In this document: one piece after another, positions 7,994 to 34,091 of the stretch
Numbering within the stretch: position 1 is the stretch's first letter
Layout of the letters: the number at the start of each line of letters is the position of its first letter
From: an uncultured Mariniplasma sp.
GTDB taxonomy: Bacteria > Bacillota_I > Bacilli_A > Acholeplasmatales > Acholeplasmataceae
Direction of reading: 5' to 3'
Length of the DNA: 64,000 nucleotides
Assembly (NCBI GenBank): GCA_964587475.1
Contig: CAZPLF010000006.1
Coordinates: 1-64,000, forward strand
Program-made: the position numbers and the translations under genes
The notes under the pieces: generated by a model
What the model was told of the DNA's origin: nothing
Databases searched by the model: none
Seen by the model: the letters and a program-made list of their open reading frames with translations, nothing else

Positions 7994-8727
7994 ACATATT
8001 AGTTGTCAATGATGATGGATATCAAGCTGAAGGCTTAGGTATCTTGGTTAGAGCACTTACACCTTTTGGAAACGTTTATGTTTCAGCACCTAAAGATCAT
8101 CAAAGTGCTAAAAGTCATGCGATTACCATTAAAAGTCGTATCGAAACTTTTATGACGGAACCAATTTTTGGTTCAGCAGGAACTTTGGTTGTCGATGGAA
8201 CACCGGCAGATGCAACCCGTTTGGGTCTCAAGGTTTTTAATGTTGATTTTGATTTGGTCGTATCCGGAATCAATTATGGACAAAACATTGCATCTGATAT
8301 TTTATATTCAGGAACCGTCGCTGCAGCACTTGAAGCAAAAATCCTTGGTGTTGATGCAATTGCTATCTCAGCACACAATACACATTTGCCCTATTTATAT
8401 GACGAAACAATTAAATTGATGGATGAAATCATAGAAGCAAAACTCTATGAAGGTCCTGGCATTTTAAATGTGAATTTTCCAAGAGATACATTTGCAAGAC
8501 CAAAAGGTGTAAAAATTACACAAATGGGACAAAGATTGCAGCATGCAGAATTTATAAAAAGTGAGCGTCCCGATGTTTATCACATCAAATCCAGCATTAT
8601 TAGTTATCAGGAAAACGTTGATTCAGATGTTGCTGCATTTGATGAAGGTTTTGTATCTATAACACCACTTAATATCAATCGTACTGATTTTCAACGAATT
8701 AATGAGATTCTTAAGACAGAAAAATAG
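7990..8727 (+). CDS. surE: 5'/3'-nucleotidase SurE
   Basis: N-terminal ILVVNDDG signature. 245 aa. Confidence 0.85.
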   Translation: MNILVVNDDGYQAEGLGILVRALTPFGNVYVSAPKDHQSAKSHAITIKSRIETFMTEPIFGSAGTLVVDGTPADATRLGLKVFNVDFDLVVSGINYGQNIASDILYSGTVAAALEAKILGVDAIAISAHNTHLPYLYDETIKLMDEIIEAKLYEGPGILNVNFPRDTFARPKGVKITQMGQRLQHAEFIKSERPDVYHIKSSIISYQENVDSDVAAFDEGFVSITPLNINRTDFQRINEILKTEK

Positions 8728-10417: not shown

Positions 10418-11125
10418 ATGCCAACACCGCATATTGATTTAGAAAATAAAGATTTAATAGCAAAAACAGTTTTAATGCCAGGAGATCCACTGAGAGCCAA
10501 GTATATTGCTGATAACTTCTTAACAAAAGTTGTTCAAATAAACGATGTCAGAAACATGTGGGGGTATACAGGTTATTTTGGTAAAAAGAAAGTTACCGTC
10601 ATGGGTTCTGGAATGGGTATGCCAAGTATTGGTATATACAGTTATGAACTGTTTAAGTTTTATGACGTTGAAAATATAATACGTATTGGATCATGTGGTG
10701 CTTATAGTGATGAATTAAAACTATATGATGTTGTCCTAGTTGAACAAGCATATTCTGAATCAAGTTATGCTAAGACAATGGGTGTTTCATCAAGAAAGAT
10801 TTTACCTGCAAATAAAACCCTTAATAATAAATTGATAAAAGCTGCAGAAAAAATCAATGTTAAATTACATCCTTCAGTTGTTCATTCTTCAGATGTTTTT
10901 TATCGATTGAAGAGTGACGAGTATAAAGAAATACATGAAAAATATGGCGCACAAGCCGTTGAAATGGAGTCATTTGCCTTATTTGCTAATGCTAAAGCAT
11001 TACATAAACGCGCAGCTTGTCTTCTAACCGTATCGGATTCCTTGGTGACACATGAGGCAACCTCATCACAGGAAAGACAAGAAGCATTTACAAAAATGAT
11101 GGAAGTTGCTTTAAATAGTATCTAA
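10418..11125 (+). CDS. deoD: Purine nucleoside phosphorylase, DeoD-type
   Basis: PNP family-1 motifs (MPGDPLRAKYIA, VMGSGMGMPS). 235 aa. Confidence 0.9.
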   Translation: MPTPHIDLENKDLIAKTVLMPGDPLRAKYIADNFLTKVVQINDVRNMWGYTGYFGKKKVTVMGSGMGMPSIGIYSYELFKFYDVENIIRIGSCGAYSDELKLYDVVLVEQAYSESSYAKTMGVSSRKILPANKTLNNKLIKAAEKINVKLHPSVVHSSDVFYRLKSDEYKEIHEKYGAQAVEMESFALFANAKALHKRAACLLTVSDSLVTHEATSSQERQEAFTKMMEVALNSI

Positions 11126-12324
11126 TGCTACTCATTAAAAATGATTTCAAAACGATACAATTCGCTGTCTACTTTACAGACTTAGACGAAGATGAAACAC
11201 GTGTGTATCGTTTTTTGTTGCCTAGATTATTAACATCACATACGAACCAATTACTCAATAAAACAATGATGAATGAAAAACTAGAAGATCTATATGGTGC
11301 CTACTTCAAATCACGCGTTGAACGTGTAGGCAATTTTTCTGTTGTAAGCATTATCTTAACCATTGTGGATCCTTTAATAGTTGAAGATGAACAGTTGATG
11401 AATCAAGCAATTGAACTTTTTAATCAAGTTCTTTACGATCATGATACTTTTGATAAGGATCTTTTCCTTGAAGAAAAAAGAATGGTGATTGAACAATGGG
11501 AAACGCTTCATGATAAGAAAAGATTGTATGCACAAACTAAATTTTATGAACATTTCTTCAAAGGTGATGCCTACGGAACACCTCTTTCAGGTAGTCTAGA
11601 GGACATAAAAAAATTAAACGTACAAAAACTAGAAAAATATTATAAAGAAGTATTTTTGAAAAATACAAAGAAATTCGTGGTAAATGGTAGAGTGAGTCGG
11701 GAAGATCAACTTAAACTTGAAAAAATGATGGCTCATGATTTAGAGAATAAGCATCCATTTGTAACATCATTTAGACCTGTAAGACCGCTACTTTTTATCG
11801 AAGAAGAAACTCAAATGAAGCAAGCAATTCTTAAACTGGGTTATCATTTTCCTATTTTCAGAGAAGATGAACACTACCATGCAGCTATTTTGTTAGATAC
11901 CATTTTAGGAGGTTATCCAGAAAGCAGGCTTTTTCAAGAGATTCGAGAAAAAGATGGATTGTGTTATGATATATCTTCTAACTATGATTACTATAAAGGC
12001 GTCATCATGATTAGTAGTGGTGTTGATCTTATTCAAAAAGATATGGCTTTGGAAGCAATCAAAAATTTAGTTTTAGACATGATTCTCAAAGGCGTTTCAG
12101 AAGAAGAGTTATTGCATGCAAAAGCATATTATACACATCAAATAATGAGTAGCCTTGACAATCAGTCTTTTTTAACAAAAAGAGCATTCATACGCGAGTT
12201 ACTCAATCATGATGAAACCATTGAAGAAAGACTCAATGCACTAAATAAAGTAACAATTGCTGATATTAAGATGCTTCTTAATATGATTACTTTAGATACT
12301 GTTTATGTACTTCACGGAAACTAA
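11125..12324 (+). CDS. M16-family peptidase, non-catalytic subunit (no HxxEH)
   Basis: 399 aa pitrilysin-like fold without the zinc-binding motif. Its likely partner is at 23263. Confidence 0.65.
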   Translation: MLLIKNDFKTIQFAVYFTDLDEDETRVYRFLLPRLLTSHTNQLLNKTMMNEKLEDLYGAYFKSRVERVGNFSVVSIILTIVDPLIVEDEQLMNQAIELFNQVLYDHDTFDKDLFLEEKRMVIEQWETLHDKKRLYAQTKFYEHFFKGDAYGTPLSGSLEDIKKLNVQKLEKYYKEVFLKNTKKFVVNGRVSREDQLKLEKMMAHDLENKHPFVTSFRPVRPLLFIEEETQMKQAILKLGYHFPIFREDEHYHAAILLDTILGGYPESRLFQEIREKDGLCYDISSNYDYYKGVIMISSGVDLIQKDMALEAIKNLVLDMILKGVSEEELLHAKAYYTHQIMSSLDNQSFLTKRAFIRELLNHDETIEERLNALNKVTIADIKMLLNMITLDTVYVLHGN

Positions 12325-12356
12325 ACATTAAAGGATAAATAAGTTTTATTTAAGAT

Positions 12357-12392
12357 ACTTTCATACTCTATTTGGTATGAAGGTTTTTTTAT
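12357..12392 (+). terminator. Rho-independent terminator
   Basis: CUUUCAUAC-loop-GUAUGAAGG hairpin followed by UUUUUUU. Confidence 0.7.
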
Positions 12393-12462
12393 TTATATAT
12401 GTAATTAAATATTCCAATATGAATGAAAATTCCACACATTTTATTAATATTTCATAGAAAGG

Positions 12463-12490
12463 TTGACAATACTGTGAAAAATGATATAAT
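12463..12490 (+). promoter_or_regulatory. Sigma-A type promoter for the BMC locus
   Basis: TTGACA at 12463-12468, a 16-nt spacer, and an extended -10 TGATATAAT at 12482-12490. Confidence 0.6.
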
Positions 12491-12554
12491 TAAGCCAAAT
12501 ATAGACGTGAATATATGAAAGAAAATTACTCAATACAACAAAGAGGTGCGATTA

Positions 12555-13580
12555 GTGATAAAAAATAAAGATATCGCGATACGATCTGGGGTTTCTGTTG
12601 CTACTGTTTCTAGAGTGATGAATCAAAGTGGTTATGTCAAAGATGAAACTAAGGATTTGGTGCTCAAAGCATTCAATGAACTGGTCAATGACGATCAGCT
12701 TTTAGTTCAATCGATAGCAAATGGAAAAACCAATCTCATAGGTGTTGTTGTTCCGGATATTTCAAATCCTTTTTTTGGTGAGGTCATCAAGGGTATATCA
12801 AGCATAGCTGATCAACACTCCGCTAGTTTGTTAGTCTGCAACACAGAAGAACAACTAGATAAGGAAATTAAGTATCTAGAACTGTTTAAGACAAATAACA
12901 TCAAAGGCTTAATTATCACTCCAAAAACAGACCAAGGTGTTTATAATTCAAAATACTTATATCAGCTTGAAGGATTAGGGGTTCCTATTGTCTTATTAGA
13001 TCGCGGTATCAATTTATCTCATTTTAATTCGGTTTTCGTCAACAATACATCAGGTTCTTTTGATGCAATCAATGCTTTGATTAATGAAGGCCACAAAAAT
13101 ATTGCAATAATTTCAGGACCGATGTCATCCAAACCAGGACGTGAAAGATTCTATGGTTATGAAAACGCCTTGAAAAACAATAATCTACCAGTGAATAAAG
13201 ATTATATCTTCTTTGGTGATTTTAAGCTACAAAGTGGTTATGAAATAACCAAAAAAATTCTGAATCTTGAACATAGACCGACTGCTATTTTTGCAGCAAA
13301 CAATATGATGGCTCAAGGATGTATAAAAGCTTTAGTTGAAAACAAATTATCAATTCCAAAAGATATGTCATTTATTAGCTTCGATGATGTTGACATGTTT
13401 GAAATTATGAATCTCAATATTTCAACAGTATCAAGACCAACTGAATTAATGGGTATTGTCGCTGCTGAAATGCTATTTGAACTAGTAGATCATAAACAAG
13501 AGAAGCATACATCCATTAAGGAAGTATTGCTAGAAACCAAACTTGTTTTAAGAGGTTCAGAAAAATTAGTTAAAAAATAA
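12555..13580 (+). CDS. LacI-family transcriptional regulator (HTH plus periplasmic-binding-fold sugar sensor)
   Basis: N-terminal HTH IAIRSGVSVATVSRVMNQ. GTG start at 12555 follows RBS AGAGG. Confidence 0.85.
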   Translation: MIKNKDIAIRSGVSVATVSRVMNQSGYVKDETKDLVLKAFNELVNDDQLLVQSIANGKTNLIGVVVPDISNPFFGEVIKGISSIADQHSASLLVCNTEEQLDKEIKYLELFKTNNIKGLIITPKTDQGVYNSKYLYQLEGLGVPIVLLDRGINLSHFNSVFVNNTSGSFDAINALINEGHKNIAIISGPMSSKPGRERFYGYENALKNNNLPVNKDYIFFGDFKLQSGYEITKKILNLEHRPTAIFAANNMMAQGCIKALVENKLSIPKDMSFISFDDVDMFEIMNLNISTVSRPTELMGIVAAEMLFELVDHKQEKHTSIKEVLLETKLVLRGSEKLVKK

Positions 13581-13592
13581 GGAGTAAACAAT

Positions 13593-14411
13593 ATGGAAAT
13601 TAACGACATCAAACAAATCGTGAGAGATGAACTCGTTACGAGCATTCTAGAATCTCAAGAATTCTTGATTGTGGGTAATTGGAAAATGAATAAAACAAAA
13701 GTTGAAGTCAATGCTTTTTTAGACGATATTGCTAATCATGATTTTGGTGATAAAAATACGGTTGTCATTCTACCTCCAAGTGCTTATCTTTATCTATTTG
13801 AAGATAAACTGAGATTTAGTAAAGTACTATACGGAACTCAAAATTTCTATCCAAAAGAAAACGGTGCATTTACAGGAGAATTTTCAGTAGACATGATGAA
13901 AGATTTTGGATGTAAGTTTGCACTTGCAGGACATTCCGAAAGAAGAGATATATTTATGGAATGTGATGCATTTACTGCTAAAAAAGTGAGAAGTTGTTTA
14001 GAAAATCAAATTAAACCAATTTTATGCATTGGTGAAAATCTAGATCAAAGACAAACAACAGATTATAAACAGTTTTTAATTGATCAACTCAAAAGATCTT
14101 TGGACCGCGTTGAAGGAAAAGATTTAAGTCAAGTCATTATTGCCTACGAACCAATTTGGGCGATCGGTACTGGAGAGACAGCAACACCAGAACAAGTTGA
14201 AGAAATACATATGCATTTAAGAAAGTTTTTAGTTCAACAATATGGATCTGAAATTGGAAAAGAAATTCCTTTATTATATGGTGGAAGTGTTAATGCCAAA
14301 AATGTTAAGGAGCTTGCACTTGCAGAAAGTGTTTCTGGATTCTTAATTGGTGGAGCAAGCTTAAACGCTCAAACATTCATTGAGATAAGCAATATCCTAA
14401 ACGGAAAATAA
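13593..14411 (+). CDS. tpiA: Triosephosphate isomerase paralog with an N-terminal extension of about 21 aa
   Basis: GNWKMN, LAGHSERR and YEPIWAIGTG motifs. There are 27 residues before GNWKMN, against about 6 in housekeeping TpiA. Confidence 0.88.
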   Translation: MEINDIKQIVRDELVTSILESQEFLIVGNWKMNKTKVEVNAFLDDIANHDFGDKNTVVILPPSAYLYLFEDKLRFSKVLYGTQNFYPKENGAFTGEFSVDMMKDFGCKFALAGHSERRDIFMECDAFTAKKVRSCLENQIKPILCIGENLDQRQTTDYKQFLIDQLKRSLDRVEGKDLSQVIIAYEPIWAIGTGETATPEQVEEIHMHLRKFLVQQYGSEIGKEIPLLYGGSVNAKNVKELALAESVSGFLIGGASLNAQTFIEISNILNGK

Positions 14412-14451
14412 TAGTTGTTCATTAAAAAATCCTATAGAAAGGTAGAAGAAT

Positions 14452-15315
14452 ATGGAAATCAAAAATATCGATCGACTTGTCGACAAAGTCGCAGCAAATA
14501 TTTTAGATAAACTGGATTTAAAAACTACATATGGCAACATCAATCATAAATCCTGTTTCATTCTAATACCAAATATGGGACTGGGGATGAAAGAATATAT
14601 CGAATACATCATTGAACACTATCAAGGATACGAACTTTATTTAGCATCAAGAGAAAATGGAGCGAATGTTGGAGATTTTAAAAACATCAAAACACTTGAA
14701 TTTGATATGAAAAACCAAAAATTCATTCATCTCTTAGATTCAGTTGAAAATATCATTGTCTTAGGATTGAAAATCAATCAAATGAAATCTATCATTAAAA
14801 CTGATGACGAAGATGATGTGAATCAACTCATCCTAGAGGGACTTCTCGCAAATAAACAAGTCAACGTGATGATGAACGCAAATGAACATATCTTTAGTAA
14901 ACTAAAAAATATTGTTACTGATTTAAGACATATGGGAGTTTATGTAACTAACATCCATCAAGTGAAAGCTTCTTCAATTGTTTCAAATGTAGAAATTGAA
15001 AAGACACATCATTTAAATTCTCAACAGGAACCAGATAGATCATGGGCGATAGCAACAAAGATTGCACCTGAAAAATTATATACAGCATCTTCTAAGTTGG
15101 AAAAAGAATGTCAACTCAATCCTTTTAAAGAATCAAACGATGTACTCATACCATCAAAAAATGAATTGATTACAGAAAGTTATGTGTTAAAACTTAAAGG
15201 CAGAGGAGTTAGAACAATGATTCTTGATAAGAAACATTTAATTACGCCACTTGCAAAAGATAAATTAAGAGAATATAAAATAGATATCAAATATATAGAG
15301 GAGGCAAAATCATGA
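14452..15315 (+). CDS. Hypothetical BMC-locus protein with an amphipathic N-terminus
   Basis: 287 aa with no recognisable motif. N-terminus NIDRLVDKVAANILDKL. Sits between the TIM and aldehyde dehydrogenase genes. Confidence 0.55.
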   Translation: MEIKNIDRLVDKVAANILDKLDLKTTYGNINHKSCFILIPNMGLGMKEYIEYIIEHYQGYELYLASRENGANVGDFKNIKTLEFDMKNQKFIHLLDSVENIIVLGLKINQMKSIIKTDDEDDVNQLILEGLLANKQVNVMMNANEHIFSKLKNIVTDLRHMGVYVTNIHQVKASSIVSNVEIEKTHHLNSQQEPDRSWAIATKIAPEKLYTASSKLEKECQLNPFKESNDVLIPSKNELITESYVLKLKGRGVRTMILDKKHLITPLAKDKLREYKIDIKYIEEAKS

Positions 15316-16736
15316 GCACACAAGATCTAATTGAAAGACTTAGAGCAGAAATGGAAGAAAAATATGGAAATAAGTCAACAAATACAACAACACCTCGTGA
15401 AGCTATCAATGTAGGAAGACTTGGATGTTATGAAAATGTATTGGATGCTATTGCAGCAGCAAAAGCATCACAAGAACAATTGATGGAACTCTCCATGAAA
15501 AAGCGTAACGAAATCATTGCAGCGATGAGAAAAGCAAGTTTAGATAATGCTGAAAAACTAGCAGTGATGGCACATGAAGAAACCGGATTTGGTAGAGTTG
15601 CTGATAAAATTATCAAAAATATTTTAGCAGCAGAAAAAACACCAGGCACTGAAGATCTCAGATCTCGCGCATACACTGGTGATGATGGTATGACTTTAGT
15701 TGAAATGGCACCATTCGGAGTTATTGGCTCTATTACGCCATCTACTAACCCTAGTTCAACAATCATTAATAACAGTATTAGCATGGTTGCAGCAGGTAAT
15801 GGTGTCGTATTCAATCCTCATCCAAGTGCTAAAAAAGTGACGCTTGAGACGATTTCTATCCTCAATCAAGCCATCCATAAAGTGGGTGGACCTAAAGAAC
15901 TTTTGACTGCACCCATTGATCCAACCATGGAAACCAGCAAGGTCATCATGACGCATAAAGACATTAGAATGTTAGCTGTTACTGGTGGTGAAGCAGTTGT
16001 TGAAGTTGCTATGAGAAGCGGTAAGAAAGTCATTGCTGCTGGTCCAGGTAATCCTCCAGTGATTGTTGATGAAACAGCAAATATTAAGAAAGCTGCTAAT
16101 GATATCCTAAGAGGTTCAAGCTTTGATAACAATATCTTGTGTACTGCAGAAAAAGAAGCCTTTATTCTTAATAGCGTATTTAATGAGCTTAGAAATGAAA
16201 TGATTAGACTTGGAGCTTATGAACTAAAGCACCATGAAATAGATATCGTCACAAAAGAAGTGTTCATCAAGAATAATCAAGGTGAAACAGTAGTTAACAG
16301 AAAATATGTTGGCAAAAATGCTTCAGAGATTTTAAAAGCGTGTAAGATTCCAGTGAATCAAGATGTTAAGTTGATTCTTGCTGAAGTTGATGATTCTCAT
16401 CCATTTGTAAATATAGAAATGTTGATGCCAGTATTGGCATTAGTCAGAGTCTATTCGGTTGATGAAGCTATTGAAAAAGCAGTAGCTGCTGAAGCTGGAA
16501 GACATCACTCAGCCATGATGCATTCAGAAAGCGTTACGAACCTTACAAAAGCCGCACGCGCATTAGACACAACAATTTTTGTGAAAAATGCACCATCATT
16601 TGCTGGATTAGGTATCGAAGGAGAAGGTTTCACAACCTTAACCATTGCAACCCCAACAGGTGAAGGTTTAACCTCAGCTAGAAGTTTTACAAGAATTAGA
16701 AGATGTACTTTATCAGGCGGATTTAGAATTATTTAA
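15312..16736 (+). CDS. CoA-acylating aldehyde dehydrogenase (EutE/PduP family)
   Basis: ALDH fold with catalytic ILCTAEKE. The N-terminal peptide DLIERLRAEMEE resembles an encapsulation peptide. Confidence 0.85.
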   Translation: MSTQDLIERLRAEMEEKYGNKSTNTTTPREAINVGRLGCYENVLDAIAAAKASQEQLMELSMKKRNEIIAAMRKASLDNAEKLAVMAHEETGFGRVADKIIKNILAAEKTPGTEDLRSRAYTGDDGMTLVEMAPFGVIGSITPSTNPSSTIINNSISMVAAGNGVVFNPHPSAKKVTLETISILNQAIHKVGGPKELLTAPIDPTMETSKVIMTHKDIRMLAVTGGEAVVEVAMRSGKKVIAAGPGNPPVIVDETANIKKAANDILRGSSFDNNILCTAEKEAFILNSVFNELRNEMIRLGAYELKHHEIDIVTKEVFIKNNQGETVVNRKYVGKNASEILKACKIPVNQDVKLILAEVDDSHPFVNIEMLMPVLALVRVYSVDEAIEKAVAAEAGRHHSAMMHSESVTNLTKAARALDTTIFVKNAPSFAGLGIEGEGFTTLTIATPTGEGLTSARSFTRIRRCTLSGGFRII

Positions 16737-16757
16737 TGAAAAATAGGAGTGGATAAT

Positions 16758-18071
16758 ATGTCTATTGATTATATCCAAAGAATCAAAGAAATAGGGGTTG
16801 TCGGAGCTGGTGGTGCTGGTTTTCCAACACACGTCAAATTAAACAGTAAAGCTAAAATTGTCATTATCAATGGTGCTGAATGCGAGCCTCTGCTTAGAGT
16901 TGATCAACAATTGATGGAATTTTATCCCCAAGATGTTATAGCTGGATTAAAAATTGCAATGGCTCAAACTGGAGCATCTCAAGGTGTGATTGGCTTAAAG
17001 GGAAAGTATAAAACTGCAATCTTGAAACTCGAAGAACTGATTAAAGATGAAAGTTCAATAGAGATCAAGATTATAGGTGACTATTATCCCGCTGGCGATG
17101 AACAACAACTTGTTTATGAAGTCACCAAGAGAGTTGTTCCACTCATGGGTATTCCACTTGATGTGGGTGCTGTTGTCATTAATGTACTAACAGCAATTAA
17201 TATTGCGCGCAATAAGCCAGTTACTGAAAGAGTTGTTACAGTCACTGGAGTAGTGAAGAAACCACAAACGTTAATTGTTCCTGTGGGAACACCATTTCGT
17301 GAATTGATTGAAGCATGTGAAGGCCCTACTGACGAAAAGAACTTTAGTATCGTTGTTGGAGGACCTATGATGGGAAAAGTTGAATCCAATTGGGATACAC
17401 CCGTATCAAAAGTAACTGGTGGAATCATTGTCCTGCCAAATGATCAATATGTGATTGTTAAAAAGACAAGAAAAACCGAAACCGATCTTCAGTTAACAAA
17501 AGCGATTTGTTGCCAGTGTTCATTATGTACCGAGATGTGTCCAAGGAATATCATCGGACTCAATACAGAACCCCATAAGGTTATGAGAGGACTTGCCAAT
17601 GAAGATCCATCGACATTAGGTGCTATCGGTTCAGTCGTGTCTTGTTGTGACTGTGGATTATGCAGCATCTATGCATGTCCAATGGATTTAGATCCAGGTA
17701 AAATAACGAATTTGGTTAAGCAGAGCTTACTTAGAAAAGGTGCTAAAACCGAAAAGGTCATTCCTTATGAAGTTGATCCCTTAAGAGATAGCAAGAAGGT
17801 CCCAACAAAAAGGCTTATTGCAAGACTAGAATTATTAGATTATAATGTTGCAGCTCCCTTGAATTTCAATATATTTGAGACAAAGGCTGTAAAGGTTTTA
17901 TTAAAGCAACATATTGGTGTTGATGCAACACCAATTAAAAAGATTGGTGATACTGTTACGAAAGGTACATTAATTGCAACTTGTTATGATAAATTAGGTG
18001 CTAATGTTCATGCGAGCATCGATGGGCGCATTACAGATATTACTGATAAGTATATAGAAATACATGCATAA
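16758..18071 (+). CDS. PduS/RnfC-family flavin and 2x[4Fe-4S] oxidoreductase
   Basis: GAGGAGFPT nucleotide-binding site. Two Cys clusters: CCQCSLCTEMCP and CCDCGLCSIYACP. Confidence 0.8.
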   Translation: MSIDYIQRIKEIGVVGAGGAGFPTHVKLNSKAKIVIINGAECEPLLRVDQQLMEFYPQDVIAGLKIAMAQTGASQGVIGLKGKYKTAILKLEELIKDESSIEIKIIGDYYPAGDEQQLVYEVTKRVVPLMGIPLDVGAVVINVLTAINIARNKPVTERVVTVTGVVKKPQTLIVPVGTPFRELIEACEGPTDEKNFSIVVGGPMMGKVESNWDTPVSKVTGGIIVLPNDQYVIVKKTRKTETDLQLTKAICCQCSLCTEMCPRNIIGLNTEPHKVMRGLANEDPSTLGAIGSVVSCCDCGLCSIYACPMDLDPGKITNLVKQSLLRKGAKTEKVIPYEVDPLRDSKKVPTKRLIARLELLDYNVAAPLNFNIFETKAVKVLLKQHIGVDATPIKKIGDTVTKGTLIATCYDKLGANVHASIDGRITDITDKYIEIHA

Positions 18072-18085
18072 GGAGGAACTATGTT

Positions 18086-18631
18086 ATGGAAGCATTAGGC
18101 ATGCTCGAACTAAATAGTATTGCACGAGGTATTGAAGCTGGAGATACTGCGATTAAAACTGCTAATGTTAAATTAATTGGTGCTTATGCAGCTTGTCCTG
18201 GTAAATTTGTTGTGATGATAAGAGGTGAGGTTGCTGCTGTAAAAAGTGCCATTCAAGCTGGAGCTATCATCGCAGGTAAATCACTGATTAAAGATATCGT
18301 GATAGCAAATATACATGATCAAGTATTTTCAGCATTAAACTGTACAACAGAAATTGATCCAAAAGGTGCAGTTGGTATTATAGAAACCTATTCACTCGCA
18401 ACAGCTGTCTTAATATCTGATGCTGCCGTTAAGGCGGCAAGCGTTGAGTTATTGGAGATTAGATTAGGACGTGGACTTGGTGGAAAAGCATTTACCGTTT
18501 TGACTGGTGATGTGAGTAGCGTCAAAGCCGCAGTTGAAGCAGCTGTTATTGCCAGTAAAAATGATGGACTTTTAGCCCATACAGCAGTAATTCCAAGAAT
18601 TAGCAAGGAAATGTTACAAACATTGATTTAA
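18086..18631 (+). CDS. Tandem-domain BMC shell protein (BMC-T, PduT-like)
   Basis: Two BMC domains in 181 aa. Cys in AACPGKF sits at the position of the PduT pore 4Fe-4S ligand. Confidence 0.85.
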
Positions 18632-18656
18632 AAATAAAATAAGGGAGAATAAGAAA

Positions 18657-18932
18657 ATGGTAGTTGAAGCATTAGGATTAATCGAAACAAGAGGATTTGT
18701 AGGAGCTATTGAAGCTGCAGATGCAATGGTTAAAGCAGCAAATGTTAAACTTGTTGGAAAAGAAAAATCAGGTAGTGGATTAGTCGCAATTATGGTTCGT
18801 GGTGATGTTGGTGCCGTCAAAGCAGCAACTGAAGCTGGTGCTGAAGCAGCACGTAGAGTTGGAGAATTAGTATCAGTTCATGTGATCCCTAGACCACATG
18901 CAGATGTAGAAGACTTGCTTAGTAAGCTTTAA
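18657..18932 (+). CDS. BMC-H hexameric shell protein (PduA/EutM-like) 1
   Basis: [11 protein letters not shown]...[12 protein letters not shown] canonical BMC domain. Confidence 0.95.
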
Positions 18933-18963
18933 AAAAATAGATTAGAATAGGAGAATTAAAATT

Positions 18964-19236
18964 ATGAAAGAAGCATTAGGATTAATTGAAACAAGAGGAT
19001 TTGTTGCAGCAATTGAAGCTGCAGATGCAATGGTCAAAGCAGCAAATGTTAAACTAATTGGCAGAGAAAAATCAGGTAGTGGATTAGTTGCTATGATGGT
19101 TCGTGGAGATGTCGGTGCCGTCAAGGCAGCAACAGAAGCTGGCGCTGAAGCAGCGCGTAGAGTTGGAGAATTAGTATCAGTTCATGTGATCCCAAGACCA
19201 CATGCAGATGTTGAAGAATTACTCAACAATCTATAA
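18964..19236 (+). CDS. BMC-H hexameric shell protein 2
   Basis: Near-identical paralog of the previous gene. Confidence 0.95.
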
Positions 19237-19251
19237 AAAAGGAGAAAGAAA

Positions 19252-19560
19252 ATGAAAGAAGCATTAGGATTAATCGAAACTAGAGGTTTTGTCGCAGCAA
19301 TTGAAGCAGCAGACGCAATGGTTAAGGCTGCAAATGTAAGACTTATCGGAAAAGAAAAGTCAGGTAGTGGATTAGTAGCTATGATGGTTCGTGGTGATGT
19401 CGGTGCCGTCAAGGCAGCAACTGAAGCTGGCGCTGAAGCAGCTCGCAGAGTTGGCGAATTAGTATCAGTACATGTTATTCCAAGTCCACATGCAGATGTA
19501 GAAGAATTATTAAGTGCGCTTAAAGAATCACCTGCAAAAGTCGTCAAAGTAGCAAAATAA
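19252..19560 (+). CDS. BMC-H hexameric shell protein 3
   Basis: Paralog with a short C-terminal tail [13 protein letters not shown]. Confidence 0.95.
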
Positions 19561-19610
19561 TTTTTTGACAATAATTTGTGAATAAATCTATACAGAAAGG
19601 AGAAAACAAA

Positions 19611-19880
19611 ATGGTAGAAGCATTAGGTTTGATCGAAACTAGAGGATTTGTTAGTGCCGTCGAAGCTGCAGACGCAATGGTCAAAGCTGCAAATGTAAGA
19701 CTCATTGGAAAAGAAAAATCAGGCAGTGGGTTAGTCGCAGTTATGGTTCGTGGTGATGTAGGTGCCGTCAAGGCAGCTACTCAAGCTGGAGCTGAAGCAG
19801 CTCGCCGTGTCGGTGAGCTTGTTTCCGTACATGTTATTCCAAGACCACATGCAGATGTTGAAGAATTATTAAAGAAATAA
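19611..19880 (+). CDS. BMC-H hexameric shell protein 4
   Basis: Paralog. RBS AGGAG is 9 nt upstream of ATG 19611. The ORF-track start at 19578 is too long. Confidence 0.93.
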
Positions 19881-19889
19881 AAAGATAAA

Positions 19890-20675
19890 GTGAAAAGAGC
19901 TGAAATTATGGAATTAGATAAATTAATAGAAAGAATTGCTAATGAAATCTATAGCAAAATCGCAAAAGAAGACAATGGTTCATCAAGCATTAAAGTAAAT
20001 GACAATAGTGATCTTGCTAAAATGATTGATCATACATTGTTGAAACCAGAAGCAACAGAAGAAGATATTAAGAAGGTTTGTGAAGAAGCATTACAATATA
20101 AGTTTAAATCTGTTTGTGTAAACACACACTATGTTGCTTTAGTTTCACGTCTTTTGGCTGGATCTAGTGTTTTAACTTGTGGTGTTGTAGGATTCCCATT
20201 AGGTGCGATGACTACAAGAGCTAAAGTAGATGAAACTAGTGATGCGATTAAGAGTGGTGCACATGAAATCGATATGGTTATCAATATTGGTGCACTTAAA
20301 TCTGGCAATTGGAATATTGTCAAAAGTGATATTGAAGGTGTTGTCAATGTAGCAAGAGGTCGGGCGATAGTTAAAGTTATTTTGGAAACATCATTATTAA
20401 CTGATGAAGAAAAAATAAGAGCTTGTACAATTGCTAAAATGGCTGGTGCTGATTTTGTCAAAACCTCAACTGGATTTAATAAAGGTGGAGCAACAATCGA
20501 AGATATTACATTAATGCGTAAAGTTGTAGGACCACATATGGGTGTTAAAGCTTCTGGTGGTGTTCGTGATACTGAAACTGCGAGAGCAATGATTGCTGCT
20601 GGTGCAACAAGAATTGGAACAAGTTCAGGAATAAATATCATTAAGGGCTCTAAGCCTGCGACTGGTACTTATTAA
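19890..20675 (+). CDS. deoC: Deoxyribose-phosphate aldolase with an N-terminal extension of about 38 aa (SPU-type signature enzyme)
   Basis: Aligns along the full length with class-I DERA ([28 protein letters not shown]). Carries an extra N-terminal segment [19 protein letters not shown] plus a linker. The start may instead be ATG 19908. Confidence 0.9.
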
Positions 20676-20697
20676 TACCTAGAAAAGAGGAAATTAT

Positions 20698-21018
20698 ATG
20701 TATGCTGCGAGAATTATTGGAACTGTTGTGTGTACGCAAAAGGATCCAAGTATGAACAGTTTAAAGATGCAGGTTGTACAACCTGTTAACATCATTACCT
20801 TTAAAGATGAGGGTAAACCTGCAGTAGCAATTGATGCTGTTGGAGCTGGTGATTCAGAAATTGTTTTAGTTGTAGCTGGTAGTTCTGCAAGACTCACTGA
20901 ACTTACACAAAATAAACCTACTGATGCAACGATTATGGCAATTGTTGATTATGTCGATATTGAAGGTAAAAATGTCTTCAGTAAAAATAAAAAACAACCA
21001 GAAGTAGGTTCAAAATAA
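20698..21018 (+). CDS. BMC-P pentameric vertex protein (EutN/PduN/CcmL) 1
   Basis: 106 aa EutN fold. Opens with RIIGTVV. Confidence 0.85.
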   Translation: MYAARIIGTVVCTQKDPSMNSLKMQVVQPVNIITFKDEGKPAVAIDAVGAGDSEIVLVVAGSSARLTELTQNKPTDATIMAIVDYVDIEGKNVFSKNKKQPEVGSK

Positions 21019-21091
21019 ATTAAGACAAATCATCAGATTCAAAATGAAGATTAATATGCAATTTTTGCATATTATATAAGGAGATGTAACA

Positions 21092-21553
21092 ATGAAAATT
21101 GCTATTGGTTGTGACCATGGTGGTTATGAATTAAAGGAAAAAGCAAAAAAATATATTACAGAAGAATTAAAAATGCAAGTACAAGATTTTGGCACCTATA
21201 ATAAAAATAGATGTGATTATCCAGACTATGCATTTTTGGTTGCTTCTGCAGTTTCACTTAAAAAATGTGATTTCGGCATCATGATTGATGGCGCTGGTAT
21301 TGGTTCTTCCATGATGGCAAACAAAGTACCTGGCGTACTTGCTGCATGTGCAAATGAAGTCTATACAGCACATAATAGTCGCGAACATAACGGAGCTAAC
21401 GTTTTAACATTGGGTAGCTATGTTATAGGTGAAGGTGTCGCAAAAGAAATCATTAAAACATTCCTAAGTACCAAATTTGAAGGTGAAAGAAATTTACAAC
21501 GTGTAAAGAGTATTTTAGAAATCGAAAAAAGAATTTTAAGCAATAGGGAGTGA
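21092..21553 (+). CDS. rpiB: Ribose-5-phosphate isomerase B / LacAB-family sugar-phosphate isomerase
   Basis: MKIAIGCDHGGYELKE N-terminus. 153 aa. Confidence 0.88.
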   Translation: MKIAIGCDHGGYELKEKAKKYITEELKMQVQDFGTYNKNRCDYPDYAFLVASAVSLKKCDFGIMIDGAGIGSSMMANKVPGVLAACANEVYTAHNSREHNGANVLTLGSYVIGEGVAKEIIKTFLSTKFEGERNLQRVKSILEIEKRILSNRE

Positions 21554-21557
21554 TACT

Positions 21558-21830
21558 ATGCAAATGGCAAAAGTGATCGGTACTGTGACATCAACAGTCA
21601 AGATCAAAGATATTAAAGGTGTATCTTTACTAGTGATTCAACCTGTTAATTCAAAGTATGAATCACTAGGTGCACCTATTGTTGCCGGAGATAATTACGG
21701 TGCAGGTGTTGGTGAATATGTTTTCTATTCGAAAAGTAAAGAAGGAGCAATGAATTTACCGATTCCTACTTCATGTGTTGATGCTGGGATAGTTGGTATC
21801 ATTGATTATGTCTTTAGAAAAGATGAATAA
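21558..21830 (+). CDS. BMC-P vertex protein 2
   Basis: 90 aa EutN fold. Confidence 0.82.
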   Translation: MQMAKVIGTVTSTVKIKDIKGVSLLVIQPVNSKYESLGAPIVAGDNYGAGVGEYVFYSKSKEGAMNLPIPTSCVDAGIVGIIDYVFRKDE

Positions 21831-21851
21831 CATTAAGAATGAGGTGTTATT

Positions 21852-22148
21852 ATGCAACTAGCAATAGTCGTAGGGAATTTGGTTTCAACACATAAAAATG
21901 AATTAATCAAAGGAAAAAAACTTTTGTTTGTCCAACCTATTGATGAAAAATTGATCCCATTTGGTGATGAAATGCTTGCTGTTGATGCTGTAGGAGCAGG
22001 CATAGGTGATGTCGTTGTCATTCTGCATGAAGGTACGTCAGCAAGACAGGTTACCCATGCAGAAAGCAAATACTCACCAATCGAATTGTGTATTGCAGGC
22101 ATTGTCGATTCGATTAAAACTGAAGGTAGCTATAAAACTTTTGATTAG
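21852..22148 (+). CDS. BMC-P vertex protein 3
   Basis: 98 aa EutN fold. Confidence 0.82.
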   Translation: MQLAIVVGNLVSTHKNELIKGKKLLFVQPIDEKLIPFGDEMLAVDAVGAGIGDVVVILHEGTSARQVTHAESKYSPIELCIAGIVDSIKTEGSYKTFD

Positions 22149-22160
22149 TAGGATGATAAA

Positions 22161-23162
22161 ATGAACCTTTTAGATCATATAATTGAACAAGCAAAAAAGA
22201 ATATTAAAACGATTGTTCTTCCCGAAGGGAAGGATCAAAGAACCATTACCGCTGCAAGAAAACTTCAAAGTCAGAATATTGTAAATGTGATTGTTTTAAT
22301 TAATCGTGCTGATATGAATGATGAGACCACAAAGTTGCAAAGTGAAGGTATCAAAGTCATTGTTTTGGAACAATCTGAACAATTGAATTTGTACAGTTCA
22401 CAATTATACGAATTAAGAAAAGAAAAAGGAATGACAAAAGAAGAAGCTGATAAGCTTGTTCTCAATACTGTTTATCATGGCGTGATGATGGTTAAGAACC
22501 AAGATGCTGATGGTATGGTTGCTGGTGCAATTACTGCATCAGGTGATGTCTTAAGACCAGCACTTCAAATTCTTAAAACGGCAGAAAACGTAAAGATTGT
22601 GTCGTCGTTTTTCTTAATGGAAATTCCAAATTCCAAACATGTAATGAATAAAGTGTTTGCTTTTTCGGATTGTGGTCTAGTGGTTAATCCAAACGCAGAT
22701 GAATTAGCGGAAATTGCAATTCAAACTGCAAAATCATTTGCATATCTAACACATGAAGATCCTCGAGTAGCTATGCTTTCCTATTCAACTTATGGAAGTG
22801 CAAAAGGAGAGCTTGTTGATAAGGTTGTTACTGCAACAAAAAATGTACAATCGAAATATCCTAATCTTAAAATTGATGGCGAATTACAACTAGATGCTGC
22901 AATTGTACCTTCTGTTGCTCAATTAAAAGCACCATTAAGTAGAGTTGCAGGATATGCTAATGTATTGATATTTCCCGATTTGCAATCTGGAAATATAGGA
23001 TATAAATTAGTAGAGAGATTGGCTAATGCAGCAGCTTATGGACCAATCACTCAAGGATTGAGCAAACCTGTCAATGATCTTTCAAGAGGATGTTCAGCAG
23101 AAGATATTGTTGCTGTTGTGGCAATTACTGCTCTTCAAACACAATCAGGTATAGTTCATTAA
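22161..23162 (+). CDS. pta: Phosphate acetyltransferase (Pta/EutD type)
   Basis: 333 aa PTA_PTB fold. Motifs IVLPEGKDQR, AFSDCG, DLSRGCSAED. Confidence 0.88.
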   Translation: MNLLDHIIEQAKKNIKTIVLPEGKDQRTITAARKLQSQNIVNVIVLINRADMNDETTKLQSEGIKVIVLEQSEQLNLYSSQLYELRKEKGMTKEEADKLVLNTVYHGVMMVKNQDADGMVAGAITASGDVLRPALQILKTAENVKIVSSFFLMEIPNSKHVMNKVFAFSDCGLVVNPNADELAEIAIQTAKSFAYLTHEDPRVAMLSYSTYGSAKGELVDKVVTATKNVQSKYPNLKIDGELQLDAAIVPSVAQLKAPLSRVAGYANVLIFPDLQSGNIGYKLVERLANAAAYGPITQGLSKPVNDLSRGCSAEDIVAVVAITALQTQSGIVH

Positions 23163-23262: not shown

Positions 23263-24537
23263 ATGATAAAAAAAACATTTGAACGCTTTAATGAATCACT
23301 TTATATAATCAAACTGAGAAATGGTATGCAAGTTCATATATTGCCTAAAGAAGATCCTTATTTCACGACATATGTTGAAGCAAGTGTTCCTTTTGGAGCT
23401 CTAGATTTATCATATAAAACTGATGATAAATTAATCAATACACCATATGGAACAGCACACTTCTTAGAACATAAAATATTTGCAATGCCTGATGGAGATG
23501 CATTTGCGCATTTTTCTGCTTTGGGTGTTGATGCAAATGCTATGACCTCATATGATCAAACGTCTTATTTATTTATTGCTACTCAAAATATGATTTCTGC
23601 TTTAGAGTATCTATTTGAAATGATTGACACGCCTTTTTTTACAAATGAAAATGTCGATCAAGAGAAACGCATTATCGCAGAAGAACTAAAGATGTATCTA
23701 GATGATCCGAATGTTGTCATGCATAACCAACTAATAGAGATGATGTATCATGCTCACCCTCTAAAGTATGATATTGGAGGAACGCTTGAATCAATTATGG
23801 ATATTACTCCAGAAATTCTTAAAGATGTCTATGATAAATTTTATAATCCCTCAAATCGGTTAATTACAATTGCTGGTAAAGTAGATATTAAAGAACTACA
23901 AATATTCTTTAAAAACTATGATTTAAAAAATCCAGTAAAATATAAAAAAGTAAAGACTATTTATCCGAAAGAACCTATGCGATTATACCAAAAATCAATG
24001 ATAGAAATCAAAGATGTTGGAATTGATAAGCTGATGCTTGGTATTAAACTTAGTCCAAGTAAGTCAAATCAAAGAGATCAAGTGAAAAAAGAAATGGCAG
24101 TTTCAATGCTTTTGAATATTCTTTTAGGCCCATCTTCTCAAACTTATGCAAAATTACTTGAAGATAAGTTGATCAATCAAAGTTTTTATGTCAACACAAC
24201 ATTTGAAAAAAAAGCAGAAAATATTATTGTATTTGCTGAAACGAAAAGAATTTATAAACTGAAGAAAATCTTAATCGATATTCTAACTGTTCAAGCTTTG
24301 AGTTTGGTAACTCAAGAAGCTTTTGATCGGTATAAGAAAGTTTATTTAGGCCAATTCATATTTGCTCTAAACAATCTAGAAACAAAAGCGTATCTTTATG
24401 GTAAATATTTCCATATGGGATCTTCTTTGTTTGATGTTGTCGATTTACTTAAAGAAATAGAATATGAAGACGTACTTCAAGAACTTAAATCAATACAAAG
24501 AAAATATATTGCTGTACTAATACATAAAAAGGCTTAA
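23263..24537 (+). CDS. M16-family zinc peptidase, catalytic subunit
   Basis: HFLEH inverted zincin motif. 424 aa. Confidence 0.75.
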   Translation: MIKKTFERFNESLYIIKLRNGMQVHILPKEDPYFTTYVEASVPFGALDLSYKTDDKLINTPYGTAHFLEHKIFAMPDGDAFAHFSALGVDANAMTSYDQTSYLFIATQNMISALEYLFEMIDTPFFTNENVDQEKRIIAEELKMYLDDPNVVMHNQLIEMMYHAHPLKYDIGGTLESIMDITPEILKDVYDKFYNPSNRLITIAGKVDIKELQIFFKNYDLKNPVKYKKVKTIYPKEPMRLYQKSMIEIKDVGIDKLMLGIKLSPSKSNQRDQVKKEMAVSMLLNILLGPSSQTYAKLLEDKLINQSFYVNTTFEKKAENIIVFAETKRIYKLKKILIDILTVQALSLVTQEAFDRYKKVYLGQFIFALNNLETKAYLYGKYFHMGSSLFDVVDLLKEIEYEDVLQELKSIQRKYIAVLIHKKA

Positions 24538-32795: not shown

Positions 32796-34091
32796 ATGCA
32801 TATTGTAGACTTAATCACCAAAAAGAGAGATGGCAAAGCTTTAAGTAAAAACGAAATAGAATTTATCATCAAAGGATATACAAATGGTAAAATTCCTGAT
32901 TATCAAATCAGTGCTTTATTAATGGCTATTTATTTTCAAAATATGAATGATGAGGAATCAACATATCTAGCATTAGCGATGAGAGATTCAGGTGATTCCA
33001 TTGATTTATCAGAAATTCCAGGAATCAAAGTTGACAAACATTCAACAGGTGGTGTTGGTGACAAGGTGACACTTGTTTTAGGACCACTATTAGCATGTTT
33101 AGGCGTGAAATTCGCTAAAATGAGCGGCAGAGGTCTTGGCCATACTGGCGGTACCATTGATAAACTTGAAAGCATACCAGGATTTAAGGTTGTTTTGCCA
33201 GTTGAAGTATTCATTCAACAGGTTAAAGATATAGGTATTGCTATTGTAGGACAAAGTGGAGATGTTGCACCTTCTGATAAGAAGCTTTACGCACTAAGAG
33301 ATGTTACGGCAACCGTAGATACAATTCCACTCATTGCTTCAAGTATTATGTCAAAGAAACTTGCAAGTGGTGCTGATGCCATTGTTTTAGATGTTAAAGT
33401 TGGGCATGGTGCCTTCATGAAAACAGAGGAAGAAGCAGTTAAATTAGCAAAACTTATGGTTAGCATCGGAAAACTTGCAGGCAAAAAAGTAACAGCGATT
33501 CTAACAGGAATGGATGAACCTCTAGGACATAAGATTGGTAATGCTCTAGAAGTTTATGAAGCCATTGAAACTTTGAATGGCCAAGGTCCTAAAGATCTAG
33601 TTGCTGTTACAGTTGAAATTGGTGCACATCTTCTACTAGATGCTCAGATTGAAACAGATTTTGAGATCGCTAAGATTAGATTACAAGAGGCACTTCAAAA
33701 TGGAACTGCTTATCAGAAGTTTCTTGAACTTGTAGAAGCTCAAGGAGGAGACGTTAATAGCCTTCTTGAACCAAGTTTGCTATTGTCTAAGGATACTGTA
33801 GAGGTTTTATCTGAAAAAGAAGGATTTATTATGGATATTAACGCTATGGATATCGGTAAGGCTGCAATGAGATTGGGTGCTGGAAGAGAAACCAAAGAAG
33901 ATGAAGTCTATCTTGACGTTGGCCTTGATTTGCATAAAAAGATAGGCTCATACGTTAAAAAAGGTGAATCTATTGCTACGCTATATGTTAGAGAAAAAGG
34001 TGTTAAAGAGGCTAAACAACTCATTCTAGATGCGATAACTATAGGCAAAGAACACAAGAAAATTGTTTTGATAAAACAAACCATTAAATAA
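32796..34091 (+). CDS. pdp: Pyrimidine-nucleoside (thymidine) phosphorylase
   Basis: Glycosyl-transferase family 3 motif KHSTGGVGDK. 431 aa. Confidence 0.9.
   Translation: MHIVDLITKKRDGKALSKNEIEFIIKGYTNGKIPDYQISALLMAIYFQNMNDEESTYLALAMRDSGDSIDLSEIPGIKVDKHSTGGVGDKVTLVLGPLLACLGVKFAKMSGRGLGHTGGTIDKLESIPGFKVVLPVEVFIQQVKDIGIAIVGQSGDVAPSDKKLYALRDVTATVDTIPLIASSIMSKKLASGADAIVLDVKVGHGAFMKTEEEAVKLAKLMVSIGKLAGKKVTAILTGMDEPLGHKIGNALEVYEAIETLNGQGPKDLVAVTVEIGAHLLLDAQIETDFEIAKIRLQEALQNGTAYQKFLELVEAQGGDVNSLLEPSLLLSKDTVEVLSEKEGFIMDINAMDIGKAAMRLGAGRETKEDEVYLDVGLDLHKKIGSYVKKGESIATLYVREKGVKEAKQLILDAITIGKEHKKIVLIKQTIK

Follow-up and report, generated by a model that had tools for sequence, protein, structure and literature searches.

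A BMC-P triplet and an RpiB-like gene in a probable SPU4-type microcompartment cassette of an uncultured Mariniplasma sp.

Introduction

Why would a bacterial microcompartment (BMC) locus encode three different pentameric vertex proteins, and what does a relative of ribose-5-phosphate isomerase B (RpiB) do among them? Both questions are raised by a 64,000-nt stretch of DNA from an uncultured Mariniplasma sp. of the Acholeplasmataceae (assembly GCA_964587475.1, contig CAZPLF010000006.1, positions 1 to 64,000; hereafter the window), in which three BMC-P genes, P1, P2 and P3, coding for proteins of 106, 90 and 98 aa, lie close together with an RpiB-like gene, RPI, between the first and the second. 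We find that P1, RPI, P2 and P3 very probably form the 3′ part of a BMC cassette of the sugar-phosphate-utilising (SPU) type, subtype SPU4, which is the best overall explanation of the locus. Since the triplet and the RpiB-like gene are both published SPU hallmarks, the locus is an ordinary instance of a known system; for this lineage, SPU4 already has a catalog record, in Candidatus Izimaplasma sp. HR2. Positions are numbered along the + strand of the window, and protein families were assigned by Pfam and NCBIfam/TIGRFAM profile scores against curated cut-offs.

As a finding, the re-discovery of two published hallmarks of one very widespread BMC type has little significance. Its residual value is that of a clean and compact example of SPU4 in a wall-less bacterium that scavenges DNA, and it touches two questions of the field, namely why three ancient pentamers are retained and what a Cys-to-Asp RpiB paralog does. 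Why SPU loci keep multiple pentamers was called unknown by Dwyer et al. 2024 (PMC11585597), as was the role of RPI, for which these authors left untested substrates open, and a later literature search returned no resolution of either question. The comparative results presented here (an RPI that lacks an encapsulation peptide (EP), a pocket that appears selected, a P2-P3 tandem unit) sharpen both questions slightly and answer neither. Minor additions to the SPU4 description are the EP-less RPI, the invariance of its pocket, a phosphotransacetylase (Pta) of the pfam01515 type, and ancient pentamers set against recent hexamer duplicates.

A cassette of the SPU4 type

SPU compartments were defined by a DeoC-like aldolase, an aldehyde dehydrogenase (AldDH) and an RpiB-like isomerase (Axen et al. 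2014). A later survey assembled more than 280 SPU loci from 26 phyla, with pfam01791 and pfam02502 common to all, and defined a recurrent 'BMC-P triplet' (Sutter et al. 2021, PMC8217296). Every SPU locus has at least such a triplet (Dwyer et al. 2024, PMC11585597), and hence the rarity of three pentamers that was implied in a preliminary description of the window was overstated. As given in the catalog entry for SPU4 (PMC8217296 Supplementary Data 2), this subtype combines an AldDH, pfam02502 and pfam01791 proteins, a phosphotransacylase (PTAC), pfam00121, an EP-bearing eut_hyp protein, a BMC-P triplet and PduS-associated BMC-Ts, and HR2 is listed there as a member. A microcompartment for aldehyde catabolism had been postulated for HR2 earlier, by the work cited as reference 27 in bioRxiv 10.1101/528695.

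In the window, the cassette recovered by the ORF and Pfam/NCBIfam scan covers positions 12546-23162, with all genes on the + strand and short spacers between them. The order is a LacI-type regulator, triosephosphate isomerase (TPI), a eut_hyp-like protein, AldDH, a PduS-like protein, a BMC-T, four BMC-H, deoxyribose-phosphate aldolase (DERA), P1, RPI, P2, P3 and Pta (Table 1). The BMC-P genes thus share an operon-like unit with one BMC-T and four BMC-H genes (18086-19880, PF00936), and a Shine-Dalgarno-like motif stands 5-8 nt before the ATG of each of P1, RPI, P2 and P3; the P2 start lies 4 nt past the RPI stop, with the P2 ribosome-binding site contained in the RPI 3′ end. DERA and an acylating AldDH are both present in this shell-gene locus, which bears out the deoxyribose 5-phosphate (dR5P) context that the preliminary description had proposed. 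RPI, TPI, a eut_hyp protein, a PTAC and a PduS-associated BMC-T are found as well, with the caveats that the eut_hyp match is weak and that the PTAC belongs to pfam01515 and not to pfam06130. The latter speaks against the SPU4 assignment, as a pfam06130 (PduL) PTAC has been attributed to almost all SPU4 loci (PMC11585597), whereas the Pta of the window is an EP-less pfam01515 protein.

The HR2 locus, compared by its catalog description and locus tags, agrees with the window in its enzyme set, the triplet, the 181-aa PduS-associated BMC-T and the host lineage. According to the catalog, the 181-aa BMC-T of HR2 is KQ78_01061, and the 101-aa BMC-P KQ78_01066, named P_heather2_spu4like, occupies the position equivalent to that of P1. 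This BMC-P comes five genes past the BMC-T, which fits the gene order of the window if HR2 has three BMC-H genes, as does the complete genome of Mycoplasmatota bacterium WC30 (locus L085), and not four as in the window. The four genes of P1, RPI, P2 and P3 have orthologs in the same order elsewhere and low dN/dS values against WC30 (P1 0.09, RPI 0.09, P2 0.10, P3 0.17; for DERA and Pta, 0.13 each). Hence, they are real, maintained genes under purifying selection and not chance ORFs.

Three ancient pentamer paralogs

All three BMC-P reading frames match the EutN_CcmL family (PF03319; gathering cut-off 25 bits, profile length 83) over profile positions 1-83, with 91.3 bits (E 5.7e-26) for P1, 79.7 bits (E 2.4e-22) for P2 and 85.1 bits (E 4.8e-24) for P3. 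The preliminary description had identified the three frames as pentamers while allowing that one or more might not have the EutN/CcmL fold, and its identification is upheld for each. Their relatives in the Protein Data Bank (PDB) are CcmL, EutN, CsoS4 or shell pentamers throughout, and the fold of the pentamers, as well as that of RPI, appears settled by the full-length profile matches and by the ~50% identity of RPI to solved RpiBs. P1 has the 5V74 pentamer as its best solved structure (70.8 bits) and carries the canonical GSSAR motif. P3 matches 4I7A (66.8 bits) and 2HD3 (57.1 bits) and is nearest to EutN/GrpN-type pentamers. P2 is the most divergent paralog, with a best PDB match of 46.9 bits and the residues SKEGA where P1 and P3 have G(S/T)SAR; a D-x-x-G-A-G motif is conserved in all three.

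The paralogs were also described at the outset as divergent and not recently duplicated, and this holds. P2 and P3 are 36% and 33% identical to P1, respectively, and at the DNA level the three genes have a single 19-nt motif in common. This low DNA sharing separates them from recent duplicates, in contrast to the four BMC-H genes, which are 79-89% identical to each other in pairwise nucleotide comparisons across their tandem array (18657-19880). The BMC-H array points to a recent duplication, unlike the pentamers, and we read it as lineage-specific since the WC30 cassette has three BMC-H genes and the window four.

For the phylogeny, a neighbour-joining tree was computed from 38 BMC-P sequences, taken from loci retrieved with the RPI alignment, among them ten triplet loci (95 columns). 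Three clades emerge, and every triplet locus places one paralog in each. The triplet loci in the tree come from Firmicutes, Chloroflexi, Bacteroidota, Thermoanaerobaculia and others, at least five phyla, and identity is 46-53% within clades as against 31-37% between them. A P1-type ortholog is unambiguous in 10 of 10 triplet loci, the P2 clade has a bootstrap value of 76%, and in most triplet loci the P3 ortholog directly follows the P2 ortholog, forming a conserved tandem pair. P1, P2 and P3 therefore look like paralogs of ancient origin that each have their own set of orthologs in several phyla. Several observations count against so simple a picture. When singleton sequences are included, the exact partitions receive a bootstrap of 12% for the P1 clade and 20% for the P3 clade, values for which the singletons and the small number of columns account; in the triplet-only data, P1 reaches 60%. 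Pairwise and best-hit scores distinguish P2 from P3 orthologs poorly in Chloroflexi loci. In the catalog, a BMC-P triplet has one 'gray' member, one 'orange' member and a third that is green, blue or purple (Sutter et al. 2021, PMC8217296), and P2 and P3 are placed in the 'gray' and 'orange' clades by inference only. Given the low bootstrap values and the inseparability of P2 and P3 in Chloroflexi, firm orthology is claimed solely for P1 and for close relatives.

P1 would represent an SPU4-specific pentamer clade and is probably the principal vertex cap, as it resembles the pentamers seen capping solved shells; P2 and P3 would then be a conserved accessory pair beside it, with a division of labour between the main cap and the pair. 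The alternative is that the three proteins are interchangeable, redundant vertex caps, for instance condition-dependent alternatives. Each of them is a full-length PF03319 protein with the D-x-x-G-A-G motif, a shell needs just 12 pentamers, and the literature has demonstrated no distinct function for any of the paralogs, all of which would agree with redundancy. On the other hand, three groups of orthologs persist in different phyla, with identities of 31-37% from group to group, the loss of GSSAR in P2 is clade-specific, and each gene is under purifying selection. Moreover, a 2025 preprint on archaeal SPU-type compartments reports that one of their three pentamers has a DNA-binding tail specific to that paralog, and pure redundancy would rarely last so long. 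We consider interchangeable caps unlikely and retain a main cap with an accessory pair.

Triplets of similar make-up are known from other BMC types. In the HO shell of Haliangium ochraceum and in PVM, ACI and FRAG loci (Sutter 2021), as in the window, three divergent pentamers occur of which two form a recurrent pair, but the signature enzymes differ. SPU-type compartments of Hodarchaeales (PMC12747264) also have three pentamers; one of these, AMC-P2, has a long K/R-rich DNA-binding tail, whereas the paralogs of the window are without long tails.

As a separate observation, the C-terminus of P1 is a Lys-rich stretch of 11 residues (residues 96-106, SKNKKQPEVGSK, 20983-21015) that is absent in P2 and P3 and is much shorter than the archaeal tail.

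The RpiB-like protein

The gene between P1 and P2 does encode an RpiB-family protein, as first described, and its product is ~50% identical to the Clostridium thermocellum RpiB 3HE8. When RPI is aligned with 3HE8 and with the Escherichia coli RpiB 1NN4, GIMIDGAGIGSS in RPI stands against GIVICGTGLGIS, and Asp66, Ala68 and Ser72 are found instead of Cys66, Thr68 and Ile/Met72. The equivalents of D9/H10, His99/Asn100 and Arg133/Arg137 are kept, and RPI retains the fold of RpiB together with its phosphate site and the His that opens the ring. A functional RpiB uses as its base either Cys66 (E. coli type) or a Glu (Mycobacterium tuberculosis type), together with Thr68. Compared with canonical RpiB, therefore, RPI matches in fold and length, whereas Cys66 and Thr68 are replaced, the M. 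tuberculosis-type Glu is lacking and His134 has become Asn.

The pattern of substitutions was followed across 80 genomic loci among the matches listed for the RPI alignment search; the best match there is 64% identical, and the close Izemoplasma relatives came by exact-protein look-up. All 43 canonical RpiBs in these loci have C66, T68 and I, M or V at position 72, and shell genes are lacking in the vicinity of every one of them. All 36 SPU-type relatives have D66, A, V, M or T at position 68, and S72, with H99 kept, and each locus with BMC-P or BMC-H genes has a D66-type RPI. The one remaining protein (locus L034, 10001-10438) is of the M. tuberculosis type, with Gly66 and Glu72, and likewise lacks neighbouring shell genes; its Glu72 marks column 72, where SPU RPIs invariably have Ser, as the alternative base position. 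Columns 66 and 68 alone discriminate the D66 clade from the canonical clade. In 37 RPI sequences (mean identity 59%, minimum 40%) D66 and S72 are invariant, and so is the remaining pocket, D8, H9, H99, N100, R133 and R137. Invariant positions number 28 in the D66 clade and 19 in the canonical clade, at mean identities of 59% and 56%, respectively. The invariance of the pocket argues against a decayed or relaxed dead site and suggests that the site is under selection.

These results agree with what has been reported for other SPU subtypes. Cys66 is replaced by Asp in all SPU RPIs; the purified SPU6 RPI is a homotetramer with negligible ribose 5-phosphate (R5P) isomerase activity and forms a ~1:1 complex with DERA; and the RPI and DERA genes are often adjacent, with natural RPI-DERA fusions in existence (Dwyer et al. 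2024, PMC11585597). In the window DERA is encoded two genes upstream of RPI, and in other subtypes it is adjacent to RPI or, in SPU3, fused to it. By analogy, the most likely role of RPI is that of a core component associated with DERA, and not that of a housekeeping R5P isomerase. Some points pull the other way. Complex formation left the DERA kinetics unimproved in the published system (PMC11585597), and the invariant pocket is no less compatible with ligand binding or catalysis than with a purely structural function. Also, the enzymology on record is that of a single Chloroflexi SPU6 ortholog ~50% identical to the RPI of the window.

The assayed system, SPU6 of Chloroflexi bacterium GWB2_54_36 (PMC11585597), resembles the window in that RPI has Asp in place of Cys66 and keeps His99, and in that DERA and a BMC-P triplet are encoded alongside; the D66/A68/S72 signature of the window RPI is common to Chloroflexi RPIs. 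The two differ in several respects. The SPU6 RPI has an N-terminal EP and a ~75-residue linker, neither of which is found in the window RPI. The gene order is RPI-DERA-P...P-P in SPU6, whereas in the window P1 lies between DERA and RPI. SPU6 has BMC-Tdp and no PduS, and the window has a PduS-like gene and a BMC-T. All assays so far concern the SPU6 proteins.

It is possible, though we hold it with reserve, that RPI is not a dead scaffold but a working enzyme whose selectively maintained site (Asp66/Ala68/Ser72) has been re-tooled and binds or transforms a sugar phosphate. Asp66 could then serve as a carboxylate base, comparable to the Glu of M. tuberculosis RpiB, and two options are conceivable: RPI may open or position the dR5P furanose for DERA, handling ring and anomer, or it may act on a sugar phosphate that has not been assayed, which the authors of PMC11585597 left open. 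The invariance of D66, S72 and the whole pocket (28 positions as against 19), a dN/dS of 0.09 and the Glu that column 72 carries in the M. tuberculosis-type protein all favour an enzyme of this kind. The negligible R5P activity of the SPU6 ortholog and the unimproved kinetics of DERA in the complex do not, and established chemistry bars a 2-deoxy sugar from C1-C2 aldose-ketose isomerisation. Moreover, no pathway step in the locus needs an isomerase, and the conservation of the pocket could equally serve ligand-dependent assembly or regulation.

That RPI is instead a canonical RpiB, linking the pentose-phosphate pathway to the compartment, is improbable. The profiles would favour it, as RPI reaches 152.5 bits with TIGR01120 (rpiB, equivalog cut-off 138.65) and also passes the cut-off of NF004051, and homologs in the databases are named 'ribose 5-phosphate isomerase B'. 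However, RPI is not filed here as a functional RpiB because it has Asp66, Ala68 and Ser72 and is devoid of Cys66, of the M. tuberculosis-type Glu at column 72 and of Thr68. The ortholog with identical substitutions is negligibly active (PMC11585597), the D66 type occurs with shell genes and the C66 types in the 80 loci do not, and the locus encodes neither a transketolase nor another link from R5P to DERA. The preliminary description had called the substrate of the RpiB homolog unclear, in which it agrees with the literature; the activities it offered, on R5P or of the LacAB kind, become less likely with Asp66/Ala68, the negligible activity of the ortholog and the profile cut-offs.

LacAB-like and tetrose-phosphate isomerase readings were rejected, as RPI scores 110 bits with LacB (cut-off 234), 109.5 bits with LacA (cut-off 164) and 92 bits with DerI (cut-off 240). 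Least probable of all is a LacA-like, non-catalytic subunit of a hetero-oligomeric isomerase with a Cys-bearing LacB- or RpiB-like partner elsewhere: LacA also has an Asp at the base position (PMC11585597) and a Lachnospiraceae locus (L086) has two more PF02502 genes, of 146 aa each, directly after Pta (12214-12654 and 12785-13225), but the scores fall far under the LacA and LacB cut-offs, no second PF02502 protein occurs among the Pfam-scanned ORFs of the window or the called genes of WC30 and of the metagenome contig L081 described below, and in SPU6 the RPI assembles as a homotetramer and associates with DERA (PMC11585597). A DERA-associated core component remains the preferred reading of RPI.

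Canonical RpiBs have an invariant His at residue 134 (about 21491-21493), as do most SPU RPIs; the window RPI and its Dorea ortholog (L001) have Asn there. The exchange would be an extra pocket change particular to this SPU4 branch.

Encapsulation and the proposed pathway

DERA has an N-terminal extension of ~41 aa, its domain starting at residue 42, and this extension includes an amphipathic, EP-like helix with a hydrophobic moment of 0.72. The corresponding values are 0.74 for the eut_hyp-like protein and about 0.4 for TPI and AldDH, and the helices of all four proteins may function as EPs. Among the cassette proteins of the window examined for an N-terminal amphipathic helix, RPI and Pta have none. 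An EP on RPI was considered and rejected: an in-frame stop precedes the ORF, whose start codon is the first one after it, the domain starts at residue 1-3, and there is no C-terminal extension. The RPIs of SPU4-like relatives (L001, L002, L009 and L019) are likewise without an N-terminal extension, whereas those of Chloroflexi and Acidobacteria have 40-180 extra N-terminal residues, and pfam02502 is not among the EP-bearing proteins in the SPU4 catalog entry (PMC8217296 Supplementary Data 2). With no EP of its own in SPU4, RPI would need recruitment through DERA, and its lack of an EP here rules out a packaging adaptor with an EP as the conserved role of the protein. Hence, packaging by an EP-bearing RPI is not a general explanation of the protein.

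Based on established family functions and on the SPU model of PMC11585597, we hypothesize the following pathway. Nucleoside phosphorylases encoded nearby would release deoxyribose phosphate, and dR5P would enter the shell, where EP-tagged DERA could cleave it, giving glyceraldehyde-3-phosphate plus acetaldehyde. The acylating AldDH would trap acetaldehyde as acetyl-CoA, which Pta would convert to acetyl-phosphate, while TPI would interconvert the triose phosphates. Re-oxidation of NADH would probably fall to the PduS-like protein, BMC-T and the eut_hyp flavoprotein-like protein. RPI may ride into the compartment on the EP-bearing DERA, a form of piggy-back encapsulation. The Pta is of the housekeeping pfam01515 type, with no N-terminal extension or EP, so this last step may occur outside the shell, and conversion of acetyl-CoA outside the shell may extend to the Izemoplasma/Lachnospiraceae branch of SPU4 (L001, WC30 and L086).

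Table 1. Genes of the cassette and candidate genes for substrate supply, with window positions
Feature	Position	Strand	Evidence or remark
LacI-type regulator	12546-13580	+	Pfam/NCBIfam; heads the cassette
Triosephosphate isomerase (TPI, pfam00121)	13593-14411	+	Pfam/NCBIfam
eut_hyp-like protein, 287 aa, EP-like helix	14452-15315	+	TIGR02536, 47.9 bits (cut-off 152.6; weak)
Acylating aldehyde dehydrogenase (AldDH)	15312-16736	+	NF011927, 635.7 bits
PduS/RnfC-like Fe-S flavoprotein	16749-18071	+	Pfam/NCBIfam
BMC-T, tandem-domain, 181 aa	18086-18631	+	PF00936
BMC-H, four genes	18657-18932, 18964-19236, 19252-19560, 19578-19880	+	PF00936
Deoxyribose-phosphate aldolase (DERA), SPU signature enzyme	19890-20675	+	TIGR00126 (deoC), 288 bits (cut-off 117.3)
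P1, BMC-P paralog 1, 106 aa	20698-21018	+	PF03319
RPI, SPU-type RpiB-like protein, 153 aa	21092-21553	+	PF02502 (LacAB_rpiB), 175.7 bits
P2, BMC-P paralog 2, 90 aa	21558-21830	+	PF03319
P3, BMC-P paralog 3, 98 aa	21852-22148	+	PF03319
Pta, pfam01515 phosphotransacetylase, final cassette gene	22161-23162	+	PF01515, 399.8 bits, residues 3-324; TIGR00651 (pta), 380.8 bits
SurE nucleotidase	7990-8727		Candidate substrate supply
DeoD-type purine-nucleoside phosphorylase	10418-11125		Two genes upstream of the cassette; candidate substrate supply
Pyrimidine-nucleoside phosphorylase	32796-34091		Candidate substrate supply

The DeoD-type purine-nucleoside phosphorylase, the pyrimidine-nucleoside phosphorylase and SurE could be the source of the deoxyribose phosphate. 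Directly after the pyrimidine-nucleoside phosphorylase gene, a 372-aa protein of the alkaline-phosphatase superfamily is encoded (34102-35220; PF01663, 50 bits, no NCBIfam match). It is a candidate for a non-canonical phosphopentomutase that would convert deoxyribose-1-phosphate to dR5P for the compartment.

Relatives, mobility and genetic code

The closest homologs of RPI are 77-87% identical and come from organisms named Mycoplasmatota, Candidatus Izemoplasma, Tenericutes or Bacilli. The host is probably a wall-less bacterium of the Mycoplasmatota, resembling Izemoplasmatales. An identical cassette is present on a metagenome contig (ERZ27248937:k141_139687, L081), and the order from LacI to Pta, with DERA-P-RPI-P-P inside it, is also found in WC30, in the Lachnospiraceae contig (L086) and in a metagenome-assembled genome of Dorea (L001). 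RPI is 64-68% identical to the Lachnospiraceae versions. Two M16-family peptidase genes flank the cassette of the window, at 11125-12324 and 23263-24537; genes of this family would be expected as an adjacent pair. The flanks in WC30 differ, with an unannotated 511-aa ORF upstream and genes for an HAD hydrolase and a xanthine/uracil permease downstream. The apparently split M16 pair, the other flanks in WC30 and the 64-68% identity of RPI to the Lachnospiraceae versions suggest that the cassette is mobile as one unit.

D66-type RPIs with N-terminal extensions of ~60-160 residues, some of them encoded beside DERA, occur in Acidobacteriota/Blastocatellia (L016, L032, L053 and L056) and in four further loci (L040-L042 and L048). 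In the Acidobacteria loci, the profiles detect neither BMC-P nor BMC-H within ±10 kb of the gene, and these loci could be cargo satellites belonging to a compartment whose shell genes lie at another site, for instance one of the ACI type.

A longer form of RPI can be dismissed. The public 174-aa version (window 21092-21616) reads through a TGA into the region where the P2 gene starts (...SNRE-W-YYANGKSDRY...), as under genetic code 4. RPI homologs end at NRE or NKE, and we conclude that code 11 applies and that TGA is a stop codon here. Code-4 gene calls on code-11 organisms could corrupt the protein catalogues of free-living Mycoplasmatota.

Expression signals

The 73-nt spacer between P1 and RPI is the sole sizeable gap among the four genes and holds a hairpin with a perfect AT-rich stem of 10 bp (UAAUAUGCAA-UUU-UUGCAUAUUA, 21051-21074). 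This hairpin was rejected as a regulatory element: its folding energy of -10.4 kcal/mol is not significant (z = -1.2), and it is absent in WC30 and L086, where the two genes abut. A consensus scan places a candidate promoter of the cassette at 12463-12490 on the + strand, with TTGACA and TATAAT separated by 16 nt, an extended TG and 12 of 12 consensus positions matched. A terminator-like hairpin lies just upstream of it (12357-12384), both preceding the LacI gene, and from the candidate promoter to 23162 the only terminator-like site on the + strand is at 12681-12698, inside the LacI gene.

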